NCBI GenBank assembly: GCA_965231815.1
Contig: OZ246890.1
Span: 1,692,888 to 1,756,887 of the forward strand
DNA: 64,000 nt
Reading direction: 5' to 3'
Source: Acidimicrobiia bacterium
GTDB lineage: Bacteria > Actinomycetota > Acidimicrobiia > Spongiisociales > Spongiisociaceae
Shown here: piece after piece, positions 7,603 to 24,800 of the stretch
How positions within the stretch are numbered: the stretch's first letter is position 1
Layout: the number at the start of each line of letters is the position of its first letter
The notes under the pieces: model-generated
What the model was told of the DNA's origin: nothing
The model's input: the letters and a program-made list of their open reading frames with translations, nothing else
Databases searched by the model: none
Position numbers and translations under genes: made by a program

Positions 7603-8898
7603 ATGCCACCCACATTCGCCCAGTTGGGCGTTCCCAAGTCCATCTGCCACGCCCTTGCCCGGCGCGGTATTACTCAACCGTTCGAGATCCAGACAGCCGC
7701 GATGCCCGACGCGTTGGATGGCCGTGACATTTGCGGTCACGCTCCCACGGGGTCGGGCAAGACGCTCGCCTTCGGTATTCCGCTCGTGGCGAATGCAGGT
7801 AAGGCAAGACCATATAGACCCCAGGCCCTCGTGCTGGCTCCGACCCGAGAACTCTCTCATCAGATCATGACCGAGCTCCGGTCCCTCTCGGGAAAGATTC
7901 GTGTGGCGGTCGTCTATGGCGGTGTGGGATACGGGCCCCAGATCGGAGCCCTCCGTCGTGGGGTACACATACTCGTAGCGTGCCCCGGCCGCCTAGAAGA
8001 CCTGATCGATCAACGCGCGGTAGACCTCTCTGATGTCGACCAGGTGGTTGTTGACGAGGCTGACCGGATGGCTGACATGGGGTTCATTCCAGCGGTGCGG
8101 CGTCTACTCGACCAGACTTCGAGCAGACGGCAGACGATGCTGTTCTCCGCCACGCTTGATGGCCCGGTCAGGTCACTAACCCGCGACTACCAGCACCATC
8201 CTGCGCGCCATAGAGTAGGCGCGGCAACACCTGACGTTATCGCTGCTGACCATGTGTTCTGGAACGTCGCCAGAACGGATCGGCTCAGGGTCGCTTCCGA
8301 GACGATCAACACCGCGGGGTCGACGATCGTCTTTTGCCGGACCCGTCATGGCTGTGACCGGATAGTCCGCCAACTCGACCGCAATGGTGTCCGGGCCGCC
8401 GCGATCCATGGCAAACGAAGCCAGAGCCAGCGGACTAGGGCGTTGGAGGACTTCGCCTCCGGAAAGGTCCAAGCGTTGGTCGCAACCGACGTTGTTGCCC
8501 GAGGGATACATGTAGAGGATGTCCGGGCTGTCATCCACTTCGACCTTCCCGCCGACCATAAGGCTTACCTTCATCGATCGGGCCGGACCGCCCGCGCAGG
8601 CGCCGGCGGCGTCGTGGTTTCGCTCGTTCCTCCCGATCAGGTTAGAGATATCCGGCAGATCAAACGACGACTCGGCCTCCAGCAGCGTATTACTCAGGTG
8701 GATCTCAGGGCTATCCAACCCCTTGTCCATGCGTCACCCCATCCTCAATCCCGCAAGGTGGCCAACGATTCTACAAGTCGCCAACATCGGAACTCCCAGC
8801 AACGCCGCCGGTATACCGGCAGGAACAGGTATCGGCAACGACCTAGCAATCACAAGCGGTCACGGTCCAAGAATCCGAAAGAGCGCGCGACCGTCTGA
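7603..8898 (+). CDS. DEAD-box ATP-dependent RNA helicase with a basic C-terminal tail
   Basis: Q-motif region FAQLGVPKSICHALARRGITQPFEIQ, Walker A APTGSGKTLAF, DEAD box VVDEADRM, SAT, HRSGRTARAG. AAGGAG Shine-Dalgarno sequence upstream of the ATG. Confidence 0.9.
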   Translation: MPPTFAQLGVPKSICHALARRGITQPFEIQTAAMPDALDGRDICGHAPTGSGKTLAFGIPLVANAGKARPYRPQALVLAPTRELSHQIMTELRSLSGKIRVAVVYGGVGYGPQIGALRRGVHILVACPGRLEDLIDQRAVDLSDVDQVVVDEADRMADMGFIPAVRRLLDQTSSRRQTMLFSATLDGPVRSLTRDYQHHPARHRVGAATPDVIAADHVFWNVARTDRLRVASETINTAGSTIVFCRTRHGCDRIVRQLDRNGVRAAAIHGKRSQSQRTRALEDFASGKVQALVATDVVARGIHVEDVRAVIHFDLPADHKAYLHRSGRTARAGAGGVVVSLVPPDQVRDIRQIKRRLGLQQRITQVDLRAIQPLVHASPHPQSRKVANDSTSRQHRNSQQRRRYTGRNRYRQRPSNHKRSRSKNPKERATV

Positions 8899-16958: not shown

Positions 16959-17678
16959 GTGCAAGACTGGAACAAACTAACCGGGTGGTGGCTGGAGGAG
17001 TCCCGGGATCCGGCTTACCAGGAGGAGGTTGTTCCTCTCTTTCTGGGGGTTCTACCCCGAACGGTATCCGGACAGGTCGTGCTGGATTTTGGATGTGGTG
17101 ACGGGCGAATACAGGATCTGCTGGCCTCTCGCGGCGCACAGCCAATTGGCGTGGACATGAACCTGGATCTGTTGCGCCTGGCGTCCCGTCGGCATCCCGT
17201 CGTCCTGAACTATCTACCCCAGATGTTCTGCATCGGAGACGACTCGGTTGATGGCGCTTATGTGGTCCTTTCCCTTGAACACTTCGAGGATTCACCGCGC
17301 TTCTTCAACGAAGCGGCGCGGGTAACCAGGGCGGGGGGATGGTTGTCGGTAGTCATCAACCATCCTGTTTATACGGCGCCCGGGTCAGGACCGGTGCTTG
17401 ACACTACGGACGACGAGCTTTTCTGGCGCTTCGGCGATTACCTGACCGAGGGAAGGACCCGGGATCCGGCCGGAGGACGAACCGTCGAGTTCATTCATAG
17501 GCCGATCTGGATGTTGCTCAGCGAAGCCGCCGCCGCCGGTTGGTCATTGGAGATGGTTCGGGAACAAGGGGCCGGGTCTCTTGCCGCCGCCAGGGACCCG
17601 ATCCTTGCCAAACACCGCGACATTCCACATTTGATGGCCCTTCGCTGGCTGAAGGCGGTGCCCGCTCCCCGTCGTTGA
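16959..17678 (+). CDS. Class I SAM-dependent methyltransferase
   Basis: Motif I VLDFGCGDGRI, later DGAYVVLSLEHF and GGWLSVVINHP. Confidence 0.75.
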   Translation: MQDWNKLTGWWLEESRDPAYQEEVVPLFLGVLPRTVSGQVVLDFGCGDGRIQDLLASRGAQPIGVDMNLDLLRLASRRHPVVLNYLPQMFCIGDDSVDGAYVVLSLEHFEDSPRFFNEAARVTRAGGWLSVVINHPVYTAPGSGPVLDTTDDELFWRFGDYLTEGRTRDPAGGRTVEFIHRPIWMLLSEAAAAGWSLEMVREQGAGSLAAARDPILAKHRDIPHLMALRWLKAVPAPRR

Positions 17679-17718
17679 TCGATTCGGGCCGTTAGCCCAT
17701 CCGGCGGTGTGGAATAAA

Positions 17719-17752
17719 GAAGCCGGCCCATCCGTTAGGAAGGGCCGGCTTC
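17719..17752 (-). terminator. Hairpin terminator between convergent genes
   Basis: GAAGCCGGCCC (17719-17729) pairs with GGGCCGGCTTC (17742-17752), an 11-bp perfect stem. On the minus strand it is followed by TTTATT, downstream of the proX-like gene. Confidence 0.6.
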
Positions 17753-17782
17753 GCCAGAAATGGTTGCTTGTTGTTTAAGGTG

Positions 17783-18724
17783 TCAGCCTGCCGCTCTGGC
17801 AGAGTCCAGCCAACTGTCCACCATGTCTCGGTTAGCGGCGATCCAAGCCTCGGCGTCAGCCTCGATATCAGCTTCCGAGTACTCATCGGCCGTGGCCATC
17901 TTGGCATTCTGGGCGGCGATGTCACTCAGCGGAATCGCCACCACCTCGAGGAGGCGGCGAATGTCGGGATTCGCATCCAGGAAGTCGGTGTTGCCTACCG
18001 CACGGATGTCGTTGACAGCGGACTGTAGCCAAACGGCGTTTTGCCCGGCCACGATGGCGGTGTTGGTCCAGTTCGGGGTCCAGGCGTAGAACAGCACCGG
18101 TTCACCGGAGTCCACTCTCGCCAGGATACTTTCTGCCAACTCGTCGTAGTTGCCCGAGATCTGCTCCACGTTGGCGCCCCAACTCTCTTCAGCGATCTGG
18201 TCGTTGATGACTGTTTCGCAGCCCCATCCGACGTTGCATCCGAGGAGGTCAGCCTTGCCGTCGCCGTCCCTGTCGAAGAGACCGGCATTGGCGGCCACAC
18301 CACTCATCGAGGTGATTCCATTGCTGTCGGCCGTGGCCTTATCGATCATCAGACCGTCAACGGCGCCGCCGGCTACTTGCCAGCCCACCGGTTCGATCGG
18401 CAGATCAAAAGTCTGGCCTGTGACGTTCTCTCCCTCCAGATAGAAGTCATGGAGAGGGAACCAGCCGTTCGCCCACAGATCGTACTGACCTGCGGCAAGG
18501 GCGGGATAGAACGAGTAGGGGCTCAGCTCGGCTGCTGCTGGATTGGTCACCTCGTAACCGAGTTCTTCGACCAACTCTGCATAGATGGCAGCCTGCATGT
18601 ATCCGGAACTCCAGTTAGCCCGGGCGATAGCCACGGGTCCGCCTTCGTCCTCGATAGCACAAGCCGAGAGCACCAGCAAGAATGCCGCAAGAGTCGCGGT
18701 CAGCGTGCTCAGTTTCTTGATCAC
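17783..18724 (-). CDS. Glycine betaine/osmolyte-binding lipoprotein (ProX/OpuAC family)
   Basis: Lipobox LVLSAC, then ARANWSSGYMQAAIYAELVEELGYEV, WANGWFPLHDFYLEG, LFYAWTPNW. The GTG start overlaps the stop of the upstream BCCT gene (GTGA). Confidence 0.8.
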   Translation of the reverse strand: MIKKLSTLTATLAAFLLVLSACAIEDEGGPVAIARANWSSGYMQAAIYAELVEELGYEVTNPAAAELSPYSFYPALAAGQYDLWANGWFPLHDFYLEGENVTGQTFDLPIEPVGWQVAGGAVDGLMIDKATADSNGITSMSGVAANAGLFDRDGDGKADLLGCNVGWGCETVINDQIAEESWGANVEQISGNYDELAESILARVDSGEPVLFYAWTPNWTNTAIVAGQNAVWLQSAVNDIRAVGNTDFLDANPDIRRLLEVVAIPLSDIAAQNAKMATADEYSEADIEADAEAWIAANRDMVDSWLDSARAAG

Positions 18725-20490
18725 CGTTGACCTCCCTTCTCCAGCCTCTCGATAAGTCCGCCATGCTGAGCTTGGAAGATGGCTTCGTCGTAGTGGCTCT
18801 CCAGAAGGTCGAGTTCCTCATCGAAGGCCTTCTTCAGGCTCCAGAGCATTATCAGGAGCACGAAGAGGAACGGTAGCCCGGTAGCCACGGCAGCGGTCTG
18901 GAGGGACGACAGGCCTCCTCCGATGAGCAGCACGATGGCCACGAGACCTTCCATGCATGCCCAGAACACACGCTGGGGCTTGGGCGAGTCGAGTTTTCCT
19001 CCCGAGGTGAGGTGGTCCACCACCAAGGAACCCGAGTCCGACGACGTTACAAAGAACGAGATCAGCAGCAGGATTCCCACAATCGAGACGAAGTAGGTCC
19101 ATGGGAAGGCTTCCAACATAACGAACAGGGCGGTCGCCACGTTCTCGTTGACAGCCGTCGCCACGTCCAAGGTGCCGGTCCGTTGGAGATCCATCGCCGC
19201 GCCTCCGAACACTGCAAACCAGAGGAAGCAAAGGAGGCAGGGAAGAACGATCACACCGACGACCATTTCCCGTACCGAGCGACCCTTGGAGATCCGCGCA
19301 ATGAACATTCCGACGAAGGGCGACCAGGATATCCACCATCCCCAGTAGAAGATGGTCCACCACTGTTGCCACTGGGTATTGAGTAATGCCGCATTCCAGA
19401 ACGAGAACTCCGGCAGGATCTGGATGTAGACCCCGATGCTTTCCACATACAGCGACAGCACTAGGAGAGTGGGACCTACCAGCATCACGAAGATCAGGAA
19501 TGCTCCGGCCAACCACACGTTGATCGAGCTCAACCGCTTGACACCACCGTCCAATCCGGCCACTACCGAGATGGTGGCCAATCCGGTGATACCTGCGATA
19601 AGTAGGATCTGGGTAGTGAGATTATCCGGTATGCCGAACACCTTGTTTAACCCTGCGGCTGCTTGTGAAGCGCCGAGTCCCAACGAGGTGGCCAATCCGA
19701 ACAGAGTTGCCACCACGGTAAGAACGTCAATGGCGTTACCCCAAGTCCCGTAGATCCTCGGACCCAGGATCGGGTAGAACACCGATCGGAAGGTCAGAGG
19801 CAAACCCCGGTTGTAAGCGAAGAACCCCAGCGCAAGCGCCACCAGGCCGTACAGCGCCCATCCATGAATCCCCCAGTGGAGATAGGAGGTAGCCAGTGAA
19901 GCCCGGGCCGCTTCCGTCGACAAGGGTTCCGCGTCGAACAGAGGTGGCGGCGCCGTCAAATGGAAGATCGGCTCTGCCACGCCCCAGAACATCAACCCGA
20001 TACCAAGACCGGCTGAGATCAGCATGGCGTACCAGGCGGCGGTCGAGAACTCCGGTAGGGCCGTCGGGCCACCTAGCCGGATCTTCCCGTACCTGCCTAA
20101 CGCGAAGTACAGCGCTGCTCCGATGAAGATGTTGAAGGATATGATGTAGAGCCAACCCACCTTCTCGTTGATGAATTGGAGTATGGCGTCGAACACCCCG
20201 GATGCCTGTTCCGGGAATATCAGTGTGGCTGCGATGAAGACCAGCAGGAATCCGGCGGCGGAGAAGGTCACTTGGGGATGGATGTCGAATCCCCACTTGA
20301 CGATATTCCGGTCGCCTGGTTCCCGGTCGGCTACTTCGGGATAGAAGTCGATGTCGGGGTCGATCTGTAGTCCCTCGAAGTGTGACCGCTCCCGGATCGC
20401 AGCAGCGCGACGGCGCTCCTGCTCGTCTTCCCAATCCTCGTATGCCTCGGAGACCTTGGTCAGGTCAAGTTCGTGGCGACCTTCAGCCAT
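18721..20490 (-). CDS. BCCT-family betaine/carnitine/choline transporter
   Basis: BCCT signature WTIFYWGWWISWSPFVGMFIARISKGRSVRE, WGVAEPIFH, 12-TM-like hydrophobic profile. 589 aa. Confidence 0.9.
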   Translation of the reverse strand: MAEGRHELDLTKVSEAYEDWEDEQERRRAAAIRERSHFEGLQIDPDIDFYPEVADREPGDRNIVKWGFDIHPQVTFSAAGFLLVFIAATLIFPEQASGVFDAILQFINEKVGWLYIISFNIFIGAALYFALGRYGKIRLGGPTALPEFSTAAWYAMLISAGLGIGLMFWGVAEPIFHLTAPPPLFDAEPLSTEAARASLATSYLHWGIHGWALYGLVALALGFFAYNRGLPLTFRSVFYPILGPRIYGTWGNAIDVLTVVATLFGLATSLGLGASQAAAGLNKVFGIPDNLTTQILLIAGITGLATISVVAGLDGGVKRLSSINVWLAGAFLIFVMLVGPTLLVLSLYVESIGVYIQILPEFSFWNAALLNTQWQQWWTIFYWGWWISWSPFVGMFIARISKGRSVREMVVGVIVLPCLLCFLWFAVFGGAAMDLQRTGTLDVATAVNENVATALFVMLEAFPWTYFVSIVGILLLISFFVTSSDSGSLVVDHLTSGGKLDSPKPQRVFWACMEGLVAIVLLIGGGLSSLQTAAVATGLPFLFVLLIMLWSLKKAFDEELDLLESHYDEAIFQAQHGGLIERLEKGGQR

Positions 20491-20780
20491 CTCGTAACCT
20501 TGCGTAGCGCCAAACCATCTGACTCTCCTTCCTCTAGTTGGCAGTCATGGTTTGCCTGGGAAGGCATCATCAGACCGGGTCCGAATGCGTCAAAATCAAA
20601 GCATCGGTCCGGGATGAAGTATCCGGGGTCCTGTTTAGTCCTCCCCAGGGACCCTGATCTACCCGAACTGTAGTTGAATCATGACCACCTACGCTGACTA
20701 GAGCACTTGATTTCTGTTTCTGAAACCCTTTCGAGTTCTGATCGCTAGTCTCGGAGCGGCACTACCAGGAAAGCGTCAAA

Positions 20781-22865
20781 ATGCAGCGAACTACCCTTTC
20801 CGTCGTCGGGATCGTTGTGACCGCGCTCGTCATCGGGTTGGGAGTCCAGGGGGCGGCCGGTCAATCGGACGATCAGGAAGAGGCCCGCCCGCGAGTACGG
20901 ATGGCGCGAGCCACATGGGATACGGGCTGGTTCCAGGCGGAGGTCTACAAACTCCTCCTACAACACCTGGGATTCGAGGTGGACGGTCCGGTCACCATGG
21001 ACAACCCCGAGTTATACGCGGCGGTTGCCGGCGGGGAAGTGGATATGTGGCCCAACGGCTGGTTCCCCCTCCATGATCGTTACCTTGAGGGAGGGCTACT
21101 GGAAGCCGTGGGTACCCAGGTCGATGACGGCGCCTTGCAGGGTTACTTCGTTGACATCAAGACCGCCGAGACCCATGGCATTACTACCTTGGCCGATCTA
21201 TCCGATCCCGGCATAGCTGCCCTGTTCGATGCGGATGGAGACGGTCTGGCGGACTTGGTGGGGTGCGAGATGGGCTGGTCGTGTTCAGCCATTATCGACC
21301 ATCATCTGGAGGCTTACGACTTGGCCGCAACCGTGGAACACGTCCAGGGCGCCTACTCGCCTCTGATCTCGGAAACGATCGACCGTTACCGGGCCGGGCA
21401 TCCGGTCCTCTTCTACACATGGACGCCCAATTGGACGGTGGGCGAGTTGGTTCCGGGACGGGACGTAATGTGGTTGGAGGTGCCGTTCCCCTCCCTGCCC
21501 GACGATCAGGCGGCGTTTCTGGACCGCACCATAATCCCTGGCATTGTCGGATGTCGTAACGACCCGTGCCAGGTGGGTTGGCCGCCCAATGACATCCGAG
21601 TGGTCGCCAACTCGGCATTCCTTAATGCCAATCCGGCGGCTCGGCGGTTGCTGGAGCAGGTGGTGATCCCTCTGGCTGATATCTCCGCCCAGAACGCCCT
21701 CATGGTGGAGGAAGAGGGTGATCCCGAAGACATCCGTCGCCACGCCGAGCAGTGGGTGTCTACCAACCAGGCCCTGGTCCGGCGTTGGATAGAAACCGCC
21801 GATCCCGATGCCGAATCCTTGACGGATCCCGATGCCGATACCGGGCTCGCCGACGGAGTGCTGAGGGTGGCTGCGCGGGTTCTCCCACCATTCGTGACCT
21901 ACGAGAGCCTAACCTACGATGGCTTCGAAGTCGGTCTAGTGCACCTGATCGGTACCAGGTTGGGTATGGATGTCGAGATCTACGCCGTCGACACCGTAGC
22001 CAAGCAGATAGACGACATTGCCAGAGGTGTCGCGCATCTGGGGTTGGGTGGGGTAGCCATCACCGGCTCCCGCGAGTCGACGGTCGACTTCTCCCTCCCG
22101 GTACTCGACACCGGCCTGGCCATCATGGTTCCGACCCACGACCATGAGGGCGTGGGCGGTCGCATCCTTAGTTTCTTCCGGGCCATCGCCGGATCCGACC
22201 TGCCCTGGCTCATCGTGGTGTTCGCTATAGCGGTCCTGATGGCCGCTCACCTTATATGGTGGTTCGAACGTCACCACAACCCCGATTTCTCCGTTCCCTA
22301 CCGGCGGGGGATCTTCGACTCCTTCTACTGGTCCGTGGTCACCATGAGCACGGTCGGCTACGGCGACAAGGTGGCCCGCGGGCGGATGGGCAAGATATTC
22401 GCCTTGTTGTGGATCTTTCTCGGAACGCTGGTATTCGCCAGTTTCACCGCCGCCATCTCCTCGTCCCTGGCGGTGAGCGAACTGCGAGGCGAAATCGCCG
22501 GGCCAAGCGACCTCCCCGGCCACCGGGTCGCGACCGTTGCGCGTACAGCCGGGGCCGCCTATCTCGAAAACGCCGGCATCGGGCCGGTTCTCGTGGACGA
22601 GATCGAAGACGCCTACCGGCTCTTGAACGAAGGGGATGTGGATGCGGTCGTATTCGATGCTCCGGTTCTCCGCTTCCACGTATCTCGGGAGGGCGCCGGT
22701 GCGGTCACCACCGTCGGTCCGGACTTCGATAAGGTTCAATACGGCCTAATGACGAGTGAGGAGAACAGCGAACTCCGAGAACGGTTGAACCTCGCACTAC
22801 TTGACCTGATCGAGAGCGGTGTTTACCTCCAGGTTTACGGTCGCTGGTTCGGCGCCTCGGACTGA
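20781..22865 (+). CDS. Fusion protein: ProX/OpuAC-like betaine-binding domain + GluR0-like ligand-gated K+ channel (S1-M1-P-M2-S2)
   Basis: Signal/TM, then residues ~40-335 paralogous to the neighbouring ProX (ARATWDTGWFQAEVYKLL, WPNGWFPLHDRYLEG, LFYTWTPNW). SBP-3 lobe 1 (LRVAARVLPPFVTY...LGGVAITGSRESTVDFSLP), TM LPWLIVVFAIAVLMAAHLIWWF, pore helix/filter FYWSVVTMSTVGYGD (filter at nt 22350-22367), TM IFALLWIFLGTLVFASFTAAISS, SBP-3 lobe 2 to the C-terminus. Confidence 0.8.
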   Translation: MQRTTLSVVGIVVTALVIGLGVQGAAGQSDDQEEARPRVRMARATWDTGWFQAEVYKLLLQHLGFEVDGPVTMDNPELYAAVAGGEVDMWPNGWFPLHDRYLEGGLLEAVGTQVDDGALQGYFVDIKTAETHGITTLADLSDPGIAALFDADGDGLADLVGCEMGWSCSAIIDHHLEAYDLAATVEHVQGAYSPLISETIDRYRAGHPVLFYTWTPNWTVGELVPGRDVMWLEVPFPSLPDDQAAFLDRTIIPGIVGCRNDPCQVGWPPNDIRVVANSAFLNANPAARRLLEQVVIPLADISAQNALMVEEEGDPEDIRRHAEQWVSTNQALVRRWIETADPDAESLTDPDADTGLADGVLRVAARVLPPFVTYESLTYDGFEVGLVHLIGTRLGMDVEIYAVDTVAKQIDDIARGVAHLGLGGVAITGSRESTVDFSLPVLDTGLAIMVPTHDHEGVGGRILSFFRAIAGSDLPWLIVVFAIAVLMAAHLIWWFERHHNPDFSVPYRRGIFDSFYWSVVTMSTVGYGDKVARGRMGKIFALLWIFLGTLVFASFTAAISSSLAVSELRGEIAGPSDLPGHRVATVARTAGAAYLENAGIGPVLVDEIEDAYRLLNEGDVDAVVFDAPVLRFHVSREGAGAVTTVGPDFDKVQYGLMTSEENSELRERLNLALLDLIESGVYLQVYGRWFGASD

Positions 22866-22967
22866 CTCCATCCCCGGGAGTGTTCCGCTCATTACGACAA
22901 GGTCGGATAGTGACTCGGGCCTGACCCGGTAGCCTTGTAACCACCCCTTACCGGAGGAAGAAGGCTA

Positions 22968-24800
22968 TTGAAGCGACCTGCACCAGCCGAGATCCCGGAT
23001 GCCCCCGGCGCCTATCTTTTTCGGAGCCCGTACGGGCAGGTAACATATGTCGGGAAGGCCAAATCACTTCGCAAGCGGGTGTCGTCCTATTTCCTTAGGG
23101 ACTTGCCACTCCGGACCAGGGCGATGCTGGAAGCCTCCGACCGCGTGGAATGGATCGTGGTGGAGAGCGAGGTTGCCGCCCTTTTCCTGGAGTACTCACT
23201 CATAAAGGAGCACCTGCCGCGCTTCAACATCCGCCTGAGGGACGACAAGAGCTATCCGTACCTGGTGATCACGCGTTCGGACCGGTGGCCCAGGGCTCGA
23301 GTGATGAGAGGGGCCAAAAAGAAGGGAAACCAATACTTCGGGCCTTATGCACATGCCTACGCCATCCGCAACACCCTCGATCTGCTCCTCAAGTCACTTC
23401 CCATCCGGACTTGCACGGACACAGTGTTCCGCAGGCACCAACTGAAGGATCGGCCCTGCATCGAGTACGAGATCGAACGATGCTCGGCCCCCTGCGTGGG
23501 GTACGTGGATGAAGAGACGTACGCAGATTATGTCGACGGGTTGGCTCAGGTGCTGCAGGGGAATGCCGGGAGTTTCGTATCCCGCCTTGAGCAGCGCATG
23601 CTCGAAGCCTCCGAGGTGCAGGAATACGAGCGAGCGGCGCGCATCCGGGACCAACTCAGCGATGTAGGACGGGCTATGGCTCGCCAGGAGATCGTGACCG
23701 ATCGTCCCGAGGACTTCGACCTGATCGCTTCCCACGGGGATGACCTCGAGGTGTCGGTGCAGGTTCTTCGAGTGCGGAACGGACGCATAGTGGGACGCTT
23801 CGGATCCATCATCGATCGGGTGGAGGAGGTGACCGCCCGACAAGTAATGGCGACGGTTCTCCGCGATCTTTACGACGAGTCGTCCCCTCCTCCTCGCATG
23901 GTGCTGATGGAGGCGGCGCCTCCCGACGGGGAGCCTTGGGCGGAACTCCTATCCCGCCGTCGGGGGTCGAAAGTAACCCTGAAGGTACCCCAGCGAGGGG
24001 CTAAACGCCGCCTTATCGAGACCGCCCGTACCAACGCCGCCGAGGCTTTCGTACGGCACCGTCTCCGCCGCCAGTCGGACCACAACACCCGGGCGAAAGA
24101 TCTAAGGAGCCTCCAGACGACTCTGGCCCTGCCGGAACCTCCTTTACGCATCGAAGCCTATGACATTTCGACCATCCAGGGTCGCCACACTGTCGGATCG
24201 ATGGTGGTTCTCGAAGATGGCCTTCCGCGTCGCAACCATTACCGGCGGTTCCGGATCAGGACGGTGGACGGCCAGGACGACTTTTCCTCAATGGAGGAAG
24301 TGATACGGCGGCGTTTCAGCGCCTACCTCAAGGACTTGGAGAAGCCCGTGTCGGAGAGGGGCAAGTTTGCCTATCCCCCTTCTCTGGTGCTCATCGACGG
24401 TGGTCCCGGCCAGGTCGGACGGGCGGTGGAGGTTCTCAACCGGTTCGACCTCGATATCCCGGTGGCCGGGTTGGCCAAACGGATGGAGGAGGTGTACGTG
24501 CCCGGTCAGCCGGAACCGATCGCAATCCCACGGGACGAGCCGGCTCTTCACCTCCTCCAGCGAATAAGGGACGAGGCCCATCGCTTTGCGGTCATGTATC
24601 ACCGTCAGATTCGAGGCAAGCGGATGGTCGACTCGATACTCGACGACGTGTACGGGATAGGTCCGGTCCGCAAGAAAGCTCTCATAAAGGAGTTCGGTTC
24701 GGTCAAGCAGATGAGGAAGGCCGAGGTCGACCGGCTCGCCGGGGTGGTGCCACCCGATGTCGCAGAGAGGCTCTACGCTAGGCTGCATGACGGCCCCTGA
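22968..24800 (+). CDS. uvrC: Excinuclease ABC subunit C
   Basis: GIY-YIG N-terminus APGAYLFRSPYGQVTYVGKAKSLRKRVSSYF, UVR domain, RNase H-like endonuclease domain, (HhH)2 C-terminus. TTG start. 610 aa. Confidence 0.95.
   Translation: MKRPAPAEIPDAPGAYLFRSPYGQVTYVGKAKSLRKRVSSYFLRDLPLRTRAMLEASDRVEWIVVESEVAALFLEYSLIKEHLPRFNIRLRDDKSYPYLVITRSDRWPRARVMRGAKKKGNQYFGPYAHAYAIRNTLDLLLKSLPIRTCTDTVFRRHQLKDRPCIEYEIERCSAPCVGYVDEETYADYVDGLAQVLQGNAGSFVSRLEQRMLEASEVQEYERAARIRDQLSDVGRAMARQEIVTDRPEDFDLIASHGDDLEVSVQVLRVRNGRIVGRFGSIIDRVEEVTARQVMATVLRDLYDESSPPPRMVLMEAAPPDGEPWAELLSRRRGSKVTLKVPQRGAKRRLIETARTNAAEAFVRHRLRRQSDHNTRAKDLRSLQTTLALPEPPLRIEAYDISTIQGRHTVGSMVVLEDGLPRRNHYRRFRIRTVDGQDDFSSMEEVIRRRFSAYLKDLEKPVSERGKFAYPPSLVLIDGGPGQVGRAVEVLNRFDLDIPVAGLAKRMEEVYVPGQPEPIAIPRDEPALHLLQRIRDEAHRFAVMYHRQIRGKRMVDSILDDVYGIGPVRKKALIKEFGSVKQMRKAEVDRLAGVVPPDVAERLYARLHDGP

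Follow-up and report, generated by a model that had tools for sequence, protein, structure and literature searches.

Among described systems, the nearest to the gene reported here is GluR0 of Synechocystis and Nostoc punctiforme, an ionotropic glutamate receptor (iGluR) with the order S1-M1-P-M2-S2, in which an SBP_bac_3 clamshell is split by an inverted K+-channel pore. GluR0 has a TVGYG filter, an Arg/Asp pair for α-amino acids and no M4 helix. Nothing lies N-terminal to S1 in GluR0, and reviews of 2012 and 2025 describe prokaryotic iGluRs without an N-terminal domain (PMC3483616, PMC12551409). Here we describe a gene at positions 20781-22865 of the plus strand of a 64,000-nucleotide stretch of contig OZ246890.1 (the window) from an Acidimicrobiia bacterium of the Spongiisociaceae. 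Its 694-aa product has the GluR0 features listed above and differs from GluR0 in that a complete 300-aa domain of the ProX (glycine betaine-binding) type and a linker are added in front. By its sequence, the fusion protein carries the defining features of GluR0-type receptors in every respect except 'ligand-binding domain (LBD) plus pore only', and it is very probably a GluR0-type K+ channel.

The added domain resembles Escherichia coli ProX (1R9L), in that the Trp box, His69 and the Cys136-Cys142 disulfide of ProX are all kept and the domain scores above the ProX equivalog cut-off. ProX, however, is a free component of the ProU ATP-binding cassette (ABC) importer, whereas the fused domain is covalently joined to a channel. 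In OpuA (Lactococcus OpuABC) and GlnPQ, an OpuAC- or SBP_3-type domain is likewise tethered by a linker to a membrane protein, but the membrane partner there is an ABC permease instead of a K+ channel pore. Eukaryotic iGluRs also have a second binding-protein-derived domain before the LBD, in a three-layer arrangement with potential for allosteric modulation, and the LIVBP-like amino-terminal domain (ATD) of NMDA receptors contains an allosteric Zn2+/ifenprodil site. The eukaryotic ATD has the type I fold of LIVBP/ANF_receptor proteins, whereas the fused domain has the type II OpuAC/ProX fold, with 1R9L as its best structural match. In contrast to the ATD, the ProX layer was acquired independently, is joined by a long disordered linker and fully retains the ancestral ligand site. 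Eukaryotic iGluRs further possess an M4 helix and a cytoplasmic C-terminal domain, whereas the fusion protein ends with S2.

Two other systems join compatible solutes to ion channels. In the GluR0-EhuB chimera, a compatible-solute-binding protein is coupled to the GluR0 pore (bioRxiv 10.1101/2021.01.27.428399). EhuB, however, replaces the S1S2 LBD, whereas the fusion family keeps the LBD and adds ProX before it. The chimera is also a man-made construct whose dimer interface had to be engineered, whereas the fusion family is natural and widespread. The nematode channels ACR-23, LGC-41 and DEG-3/DES-2 reportedly respond to glycine betaine (PMC9860315, PMC8747062), but they are pentameric Cys-loop receptors of animal neurotransmission with an unrelated fold, pore and binding site.

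The open reading frame (ORF) starts with ATG and encodes 694 aa and a stop codon, with zero internal stops in the ORF list and translation. A first-pass annotation made from the letters of the sequence had read it as a signal or transmembrane segment followed by an OpuAC/ProX domain and S1-M1-pore-M2-S2. This order, more fully signal/anchor, ProX, linker, S1, M1, pore helix, TVGYGD, M2 and S2, was borne out by Pfam, hydropathy and an AlphaFold2 (AF2) model, and the motifs WPNGWFPLH (aa 90-98), YTWTPNW (aa 212-218) and TVGYGD (nt 22350-22367) were found where that annotation had placed them, the last of them to the nucleotide. Pfam assigned OpuAC to aa 38-327 (E 9e-47) and SBP_bac_3 to aa 363-691, the latter split by the channel domains (Ion_trans_2, aa 483-562; Lig_chan, aa 476-580), and gave no BPD_transp_1, ANF_receptor or Peripla_BP_6 match in the fusion protein.

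Hydropathy showed an N-terminal hydrophobic segment (aa 1-27) and two transmembrane helices flanking the pore loop. The AF2 model had a helix at aa 2-21, a low-confidence stretch at aa 21-33, a ProX domain with predicted local distance difference test (pLDDT) scores of 80-96, and helices for M1 (aa ~474-499), the pore helix (aa 507-523) and M2 (aa ~535-565). Neither hydropathy nor the model gave an M4-type helix or any hydrophobic segment beyond aa 569, and the N-terminus of the fusion protein had no lipobox Cys. Because this layout consists of the N-terminal helix, M1, the pore loop and M2, with nothing after, the ProX domain, S1 and S2 are all predicted to be extracytoplasmic and the pore loop to enter from the cytoplasmic side, as in GluR0; the N-terminal anchor or signal would place the ProX domain outside the cell.

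In a PDB sequence search, the fused ProX domain matched E. coli ProX 1R9L with an E value of 2e-68 and 38% identity. It scored 341.6 bits against the cut-off of 215 of the NCBIfam ProX equivalog NF008334, and Foldseek aligned its model to 1R9L with a TM-score of 0.84 (normalised to 1R9L) and a root-mean-square deviation of 3.0 Å. The study of 1R9L reportedly describes a box of Trp65, Trp140 and Trp188 that binds the trimethylammonium group through cation-π interactions, together with His69 and the Cys136-Cys142 disulfide. Alignment with 1R9L equated these residues with W94, W166, W214, H98 and C162-C168 of the fusion protein.

We counted conservation in 66 species-level sequences and 238 database proteins. 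W94, W166, C162 and C168 were each present in all 66 and all 238. W214 was Trp in 238/238 database proteins and either Trp (58) or Phe (8) at species level, and H98 was found in 60/66 and 217/238 sequences, respectively. Loss of the aromatic cage, a concern raised in the first-pass annotation, was not seen, with W94 and W166 100% conserved and W214 always Trp or Phe. A degenerate ProX site was rejected, since the Trp box, the His and the disulfide were invariant or nearly so. Across phyla, identity to the query was 49-62% for the ProX domain, 25-41% for S1, 38-51% for the transmembrane domain (TMD) and 33-52% for S2. Judged by these values, ProX is the best-conserved and the slowest-evolving part of the fusion protein. 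Together with a Trp box that is never lost, they speak for an essential role of ligand binding by ProX in the function of the protein. The betaine-type site is under strong purifying selection, and the domain probably binds a ligand of the betaine type.

The ProX domain also contains an insertion at aa 242-280 (window 21504-21620) with a second, invariant Cys pair, C258/C263, in a GC..DPC motif, which is absent from E. coli ProX and from the neighbouring lipoprotein. The possibility that this Cys258-Cys263 hairpin is a fusion-specific docking element was rejected, because free ProX-type proteins belonging to this branch have the hairpin too. Closely related ProX-type domains were found on other modules in P0135, P0143, P0190, P0233 and P0252, whose partners include WD40 propellers, VWA plus SBP_bac_11, Peripla_BP_6, a trypsin-like protease and a 2069-aa BTAD-kinase-STAND protein. 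By these sequences, the ProX domain is a promiscuous building block. A fusion to a BPD_transp_1 permease was present among distant relatives (P0255).

The best solved relative of the channel half was the ligand-binding core of Nostoc punctiforme GluR0 (2PYY, E 8e-38), followed in the PDB sequence search by glutamine-binding proteins and eukaryotic iGluRs; Foldseek matched this half to GluA LBD-TMD structures. R431 in ITGSR and D626 in VVFDAP aligned with their Arg and Asp counterparts in GluR0 and GlnH. R431 was kept in 61/66 species-level and 229/238 database sequences, and D626 in 63/66 and 235/238. The exceptions were, for the Arg, a few cyanobacteria (R to A or G) and Phytoactinopolyspora halophila (R to V) and, for the Asp, Sericytochromatia and Kiritimatiellae (D to H). 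All of them retained the Trp box; the Arg or Asp of the LBD was lost in some members of the family, the Trp box in none.

The canonical K+ filter TVGYGD read at first pass was confirmed, and it was conserved in 63/66 species-level and 238/238 database sequences. A non-selective pore in the window gene was rejected on the basis of this filter; a few relatives do carry non-K+ filters. The most likely default is therefore a gate of the GluR0 type that would be operated by amino acids and selective for K+. Since the Arg/Asp pair of the LBD is kept, the channel is probably still gated through its amino-acid site, and ProX would then be a second sensor or modulator and not necessarily the gate.

Departures from the canonical filter were seen in two loci, L032:1117-3132 and L063:6905-9043 (Phytoactinopolyspora halophila YIM 96934), one of them in a cultured halophile; TPFGAGNN replaces TVGYGD in both. 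Both retain the ProX Trp box, and in L063 the LBD Arg is also lost (R to V). From these sequences, the two loci probably represent a sub-lineage that is not K+-selective or is otherwise altered. In P0123 (1008 aa), two tandem ProX-type domains precede S1-pore-S2, an arrangement resembling the tandem substrate-binding domains (SBDs) of GlnPQ; its pore loop has no GYG, and the first box Trp is missing from the second ProX copy.

Between ProX and S1, the AF2 model had pLDDT values below 50 at aa 345-358, flanked by two confidently folded domains. In the family alignment, the inter-domain span (query alignment positions 328-362) was 34-48 aa long, acidic and rich in Pro and Ala. This linker looks more like the tethers of OpuA and GlnPQ than like the short ATD-LBD linkers of eukaryotic iGluRs. 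The first-pass annotation had likened ProX to the eukaryotic ATD. The likeness in position stood; homology did not, as the fold is type II, and rigid ATD-like packing is unlikely across a variable, disordered spacer.

The fusion was found to belong to a conserved family that extends across phyla. A homologue search of 5.8 billion proteins gave 732 matches. The best 120 of these were examined, the first being the window's own protein; all were 654-702 aa long, had the same Pfam set and showed 68-100% identity to the query. At least 120 further full-length fusions were recovered with a profile of non-actinobacterial members. More than 230 full-length homologues share the architecture, and at least 66 species-level genomes carry the fusion. 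In 1.84 billion representatives at 50% identity, about a dozen clusters were full-length fusions. For the channel half, the closest unfused proteins were GluR0-like, ~365 aa long and 34-40% identical to aa 360-692.

A scan of species-representative genomes, of which the best 80 loci were taken, showed the full-length gene at 41-94% identity. On the actinomycetotal side, the carriers included Acidimicrobiia (the closest being a complete chromosome of a metagenome-assembled genome (MAG), 94%), Nitriliruptorales and Phytoactinopolyspora. Among the others were Desulfobacterales, Anaerolineae/Caldilineae, Holophagae, Kiritimatiellae, Sericytochromatia, Gemmatimonadaceae and several families of Cyanobacteria, including the cultured Halomicronema sp. 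CCY15110. The record names mention sponges, marine sediment, mats, soda-lake sediment and a halophilic actinomycete, and they point to saline habitats.

A mis-joining of two genes, which had been considered at first pass, did not hold, because the gene is a conserved single ORF across many species. Like full-length architectures in two independent searches and in complete MAG chromosomes exclude a sequencing or assembly mis-join, and a frameshift or missing stop was likewise rejected, as all the best matches and the complete chromosomes have a single ORF. In one locus (L073:7001-9005, Leptolyngbya sp. SIOISBB), the fusion match lies in two pieces in different frames that join near 8472, which is either a frameshifted pseudogene or an assembly error. 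In a neighbour-joining tree of the channel part, 23 of the 25 fusions fell into one cluster, which also includes three unfused sequences; the deep nodes were star-like and without bootstrap support, and the tree does no more than agree with a single fusion event or a small number of them. Identities of the ProX and channel parts correlated over all pairs (r 0.84) and failed to do so for distant ones (r 0.14).

Table 1. Positions in the window of the parts of the fusion gene and of its divergent neighbours.
Feature	Positions	Strand	Basis
ProX-GluR0 fusion, whole gene	20781-22865	+	ORF, Pfam architecture, full-length homologues of like architecture
Signal peptide or membrane anchor, aa 1-27	20781-20861	+	Hydropathy; AF2 helix
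ProX-type (OpuAC family) glycine betaine/proline betaine-binding domain, aa 38-341	20892-21803	+	Pfam, NCBIfam, 1R9L, Foldseek, pLDDT
W94 codon, equivalent of ProX Trp65 (aromatic box)	21060-21062	+	1R9L alignment
W166 codon, equivalent of ProX Trp140; C162 and C168 lie on either side	21276-21278	+	1R9L alignment
W214 codon, equivalent of ProX Trp188	21420-21422	+	1R9L alignment
ProX-S1 linker, aa 342-358, acidic, Pro/Ala-rich, predicted disordered	21804-21854	+	pLDDT, family alignment
S1 lobe, SBP_bac_3/iGluR LBD, aa 359-452	21855-22136	+	Pfam SBP_bac_3, Lig_chan-Glu_bd; 2PYY and GlnH alignment
R431 codon, α-carboxylate-binding Arg of S1	22071-22073	+	Alignment to 2PYY, GlnH
Channel module: pre-M1 helix, M1, pore helix, filter, M2	22152-22487	+	Pfam Ion_trans_2, Lig_chan, Ion_trans; AF2; Foldseek
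K+ selectivity filter TVGYGD, aa 524-529	22350-22367	+	Motif position
S2 lobe, aa 570-694	22488-22862	+	2PYY alignment, E 8e-38
D626 codon, α-amino-binding Asp of S2	22656-22658	+	Alignment to 2PYY, GlnH
BCCT-family carrier, 589 aa	18721-20490	-	Pfam BCCT, E 4e-187; NCBIfam BCCT subfamily
Free ProX-type lipoprotein, 313 aa	17783-18724	-	Pfam OpuAC; NCBIfam ProX equivalog, 235 bits vs cut-off 215
Divergent intergenic region between BCCT operon and fusion, 290 bp	20491-20780	.	Coordinates

The genes divergent from the fusion (Table 1) had been read at first pass as a betaine transporter operon. An operon it is, consisting of a BCCT secondary carrier and a ProX lipoprotein and not of an ABC system, and no ProVW/OpuA-type ABC genes were found in the 64-kb window; betaine as its substrate is only the likeliest choice. 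The lipoprotein has a lipobox (LVLSAC) and intact Trp-box motifs, and at ~40% identity to the fused ProX domain it is indeed the paralogue that the same annotation had recognised. Its GTG start overlaps the BCCT stop as GTGA, which makes a translationally coupled pair. We know of no other arrangement in which a binding protein is paired with a BCCT carrier. The module lies between uvrA and uvrC in an actinobacterial housekeeping context that also includes rapZ and pgk, with no betaine catabolic genes adjoining. The 290-bp intergenic region presumably holds the promoters of both units; in a promoter/terminator consensus scan of this region, matches were no commoner than in shuffled sequence, and Rfam gave no RNA element or riboswitch at E up to 1 over positions 17000-24000.

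The pair of BCCT and ProX-type lipoprotein genes travels with the fusion gene in several phyla. Using tblastn, we measured linkage as a BCCT gene within 5 kb of the fusion and obtained 54 informative loci. Linkage was present in 42 of them, in six lineages: Acidimicrobiia (29/29), Desulfobacterota (9/11), and Nitriliruptorales, Chloroflexota, Kiritimatiellae and Gemmatimonadaceae (1/1 each). A free ProX/OpuAC binding-protein gene usually accompanies the BCCT-linked fusion. Four arrangements were observed, in which the BCCT gene is divergent upstream (as in the window), convergent downstream, on the same strand in the order BCCT, substrate-binding protein (SBP), fusion (L027 and Desulfobacterota), or directly upstream at a distance of 42 bp (L069). 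Linkage that outlasts rearrangement and phylogenetic distance is good evidence of shared function, and it strengthens the tie to betaine transport that was drawn at first pass.

One desulfobacterotal locus (L050) has the order BCCT, a 100-aa ORF, an OpuAC-type SBP, the fusion, a MarR-family regulator and an ABC ATPase with a CBS domain, with another OpuAC protein among its further genes. The SBP is closest to Bacillus subtilis OpuAC (2B4L, E 1e-60) and the ABC system is OpuA-like; by its gene content, L050 is a compatible-solute uptake island. Where BCCT was absent, the fusion had neighbours that were unrelated or differed from locus to locus, among them mreBCD/TauE, hydrolases, a GGDEF sensor, genes for cobalamin and a Na+/H+ exchanger-Usp fusion, and no common theme emerged in Cyanobacteria, Phytoactinopolyspora, Holophagae and Sericytochromatia. 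The exchanger, a Na+/H+ exchanger-universal stress protein fusion divergent from the fusion gene in a Xenococcaceae cyanobacterium that lacks BCCT there (L058:5116-6714), is an ion-homeostasis or stress gene.

As a whole, the fusion is best explained, in our view and with moderate confidence, as a betaine-type sensor layer on a GluR0-type K+ channel that works with BCCT uptake. The protein would assemble as a tetramer into a K+-selective, ligand-gated channel of the GluR0 type, with two binding modules outside the cell. Next to the membrane, the S1S2 clamshell most likely would still bind an α-amino acid and drive the gate, while the tethered N-terminal ProX domain would hold glycine betaine, proline betaine or a near analogue with a trimethylammonium group in its Trp box. 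Occupancy and closure of ProX would then alter the open probability of the channel, possibly through docking of ProX on the LBD layer in the manner of liganded binding proteins, which attach to chemoreceptors, sensor kinases or ABC permeases, and K+ flux would thereby be tied to the external availability of osmoprotectants. That ProX occupancy modulates gating is, on the sequence evidence, about an even call. Such coupling is made plausible by two precedents: the GluR0 pore is gated by the ectoine-binding protein EhuB when this is engineered to replace the LBD (bioRxiv 10.1101/2021.01.27.428399), and in Halobacterium CosB, of the OpuAC family, relays compatible-solute signals to the transducer CosT (PMC8050422).

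At the level of the cell, the channel, the adjacent BCCT carrier and the free ProX/OpuAC binding protein may act as a unit. As betaine is taken up with Na+ or H+, K+ would move through the channel and balance the charge, and this exchange of K+ for a compatible solute would constitute the second phase of osmoadaptation. Alternatively, the flux may set the level of K+ in the cytoplasm, by which some BCCT carriers, BetP for one, are regulated. An osmoadaptive role in coordinating K+ and betaine is suggested only tentatively by these sequences. In this scheme, we infer the identity of both ligands, the effect of ProX on gating and the direction of K+ flux, which depends on the membrane potential relative to the K+ equilibrium potential (E_K).

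Several observations weigh against the proposed scheme. The inter-domain span is only 12-56% identical outside the closest relative and forms a long, disordered linker, and no rigid coupling path from ProX to the gate was visible in the AF2 single-chain model (predicted TM-score 0.46). The occurrence of ProX-type domains on unrelated extracytoplasmic modules (WD40, VWA, Peripla_BP_6, protease and STAND-kinase) means that fusion alone is no proof of allosteric coupling. BCCT linkage was absent in Cyanobacteria (0/6), Phytoactinopolyspora (0/2), Holophagae and Sericytochromatia. The closest solved relative of the window BCCT is the trimethylamine transporter TmaT (8ZW8, E 3e-151; BetP ~1e-87), and the carrier scores below the NCBIfam glycine-betaine BCCT equivalog cut-off (549 vs 650 bits). 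The shared ligand may therefore be another methylated amine; betaine nevertheless appears to be the likeliest ligand class. If the membrane potential is more negative than E_K, K+ would flow into the cell through an open K+ channel and would not be released.

A stronger version of the scheme, in which ProX and not the amino-acid clamshell is the physiological trigger, so that the protein would be a natural betaine-gated K+ channel, acting as one unit with the BCCT carrier and its free binding protein and exchanging cytoplasmic K+ for imported compatible solute, seems doubtful to us. If true, it would supply the K+ release and charge-compensation route of the second osmoadaptation phase, and it would be an independent prokaryotic invention of the three-layer NTD-LBD-pore (NTD, N-terminal domain) design of iGluRs.

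It is rather unlikely that the protein is an ordinary amino-acid-gated GluR0 in which gating is untouched, ProX, tethered to the membrane, captures betaine and increases its local concentration for the BCCT or for an ABC importer elsewhere, and the fusion serves co-localisation or co-expression. Such capture would fit the long, disordered and poorly conserved linker, the promiscuous fusion of ProX-type domains to other modules and the amino-acid site that the LBD has retained. Substrate-binding domains on membrane proteins are, besides, a known device of ABC importers, and Foldseek also gave matches to the GlnPQ SBD tandem (6H30) and an OpuA chain (7AHC). A free ProX lipoprotein is, however, already encoded with the BCCT gene, an N-terminal anchor by itself would be enough, and to our knowledge BCCT carriers do not employ binding proteins. 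The fusion is retained in diderm lineages, where a tether is needless, and also where no BCCT gene adjoins it. Strict conservation of the order ProX-S1-pore-S2 extends over very deep divergence, and ProX is the slowest-evolving part of the protein.

Still less probable is a chemosensory or electrical signalling role, in which the channel would report nutrients instead of osmotic state and a change in membrane potential or K+ would prime uptake and catabolism. Its premise is that sponges and sediments offer methylated amines and amino acids as sources of both carbon and nitrogen. The carriers do include sponge symbionts and Desulfobacterales of marine sediment, and betaine serves as a substrate in habitats of this type (PMC8547467, PMC12478193). 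GluR0 itself has been discussed as a nutrient sensor (PMC12551409), the kinship of the window BCCT to a trimethylamine importer would suit this role, and the cyanobacterial copies have no osmolyte genes nearby. Against this role, the neighbours in the window are uvrA, uvrC, rapZ and pgk, with no betaine catabolic genes adjoining the fusion; OpuA-type osmoprotectant uptake genes, a CBS-domain ATPase and a MarR regulator stand at L050, and a Na+/H+ exchanger fused to a Usp domain stands at L058.

A purely structural ProX, serving assembly or stability without a physiological ligand, is very improbable, for although its position equals that of the ATD and eukaryotic ATDs, themselves binding-protein-derived, have mostly stopped binding their ancestral ligands (PMC3483616), complete or near-complete conservation of the Trp box, the His and the disulfide from phylum to phylum would not be expected in such a role, the domain lies above the ProX equivalog threshold, and the flexible linker speaks against a rigid assembly layer.

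The first-pass annotation knew of no described example of such a protein. A full-text literature search likewise found no description of a ProX/OpuAC-iGluR or ProX-K+ channel fusion, although most subscription journals were outside its coverage and this absence is no proof. A 2010 survey of prokaryotic iGluRs mentions neither betaine nor OpuAC, and a survey from 2021 that treats binding proteins in signalling makes no mention of channels. The fusion family is thus widespread and unrecognised. It is not categorically new, because both modules are known and K+ pores operated by a binding protein are known in principle.

Part of its obscurity lies in annotation. The NCBI name of the whole 694-aa protein is 'glycine betaine/L-proline ABC transporter substrate-binding protein ProX', a consequence of the score of its N-terminal domain above the equivalog cut-off, and JGI names the fusion as one or two ABC binding proteins, so that the channel is invisible. 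Hundreds of database entries named 'ProX substrate-binding protein' would accordingly be channels. For biosensor channels, which have hitherto been engineered (bioRxiv 10.1101/2021.01.27.428399), the family offers natural starting points.

The N-terminal layer of iGluRs has been treated in reviews as a eukaryotic addition (PMC3483616, PMC12551409), and the fusion family departs from that view: bacteria added their own second binding-protein layer to an iGluR, of another fold and with its ligand site intact. The family would provide a simple model of the way in which a gate of the iGluR type comes under the modulation of an added sensor domain. Accumulation of K+ and its later replacement by betaine are textbook steps of osmoadaptation, whose coordination at the membrane is poorly defined. 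A K+ channel with a putative betaine sensor, genetically tied to a betaine-family carrier, makes this link between K+ and betaine directly testable.

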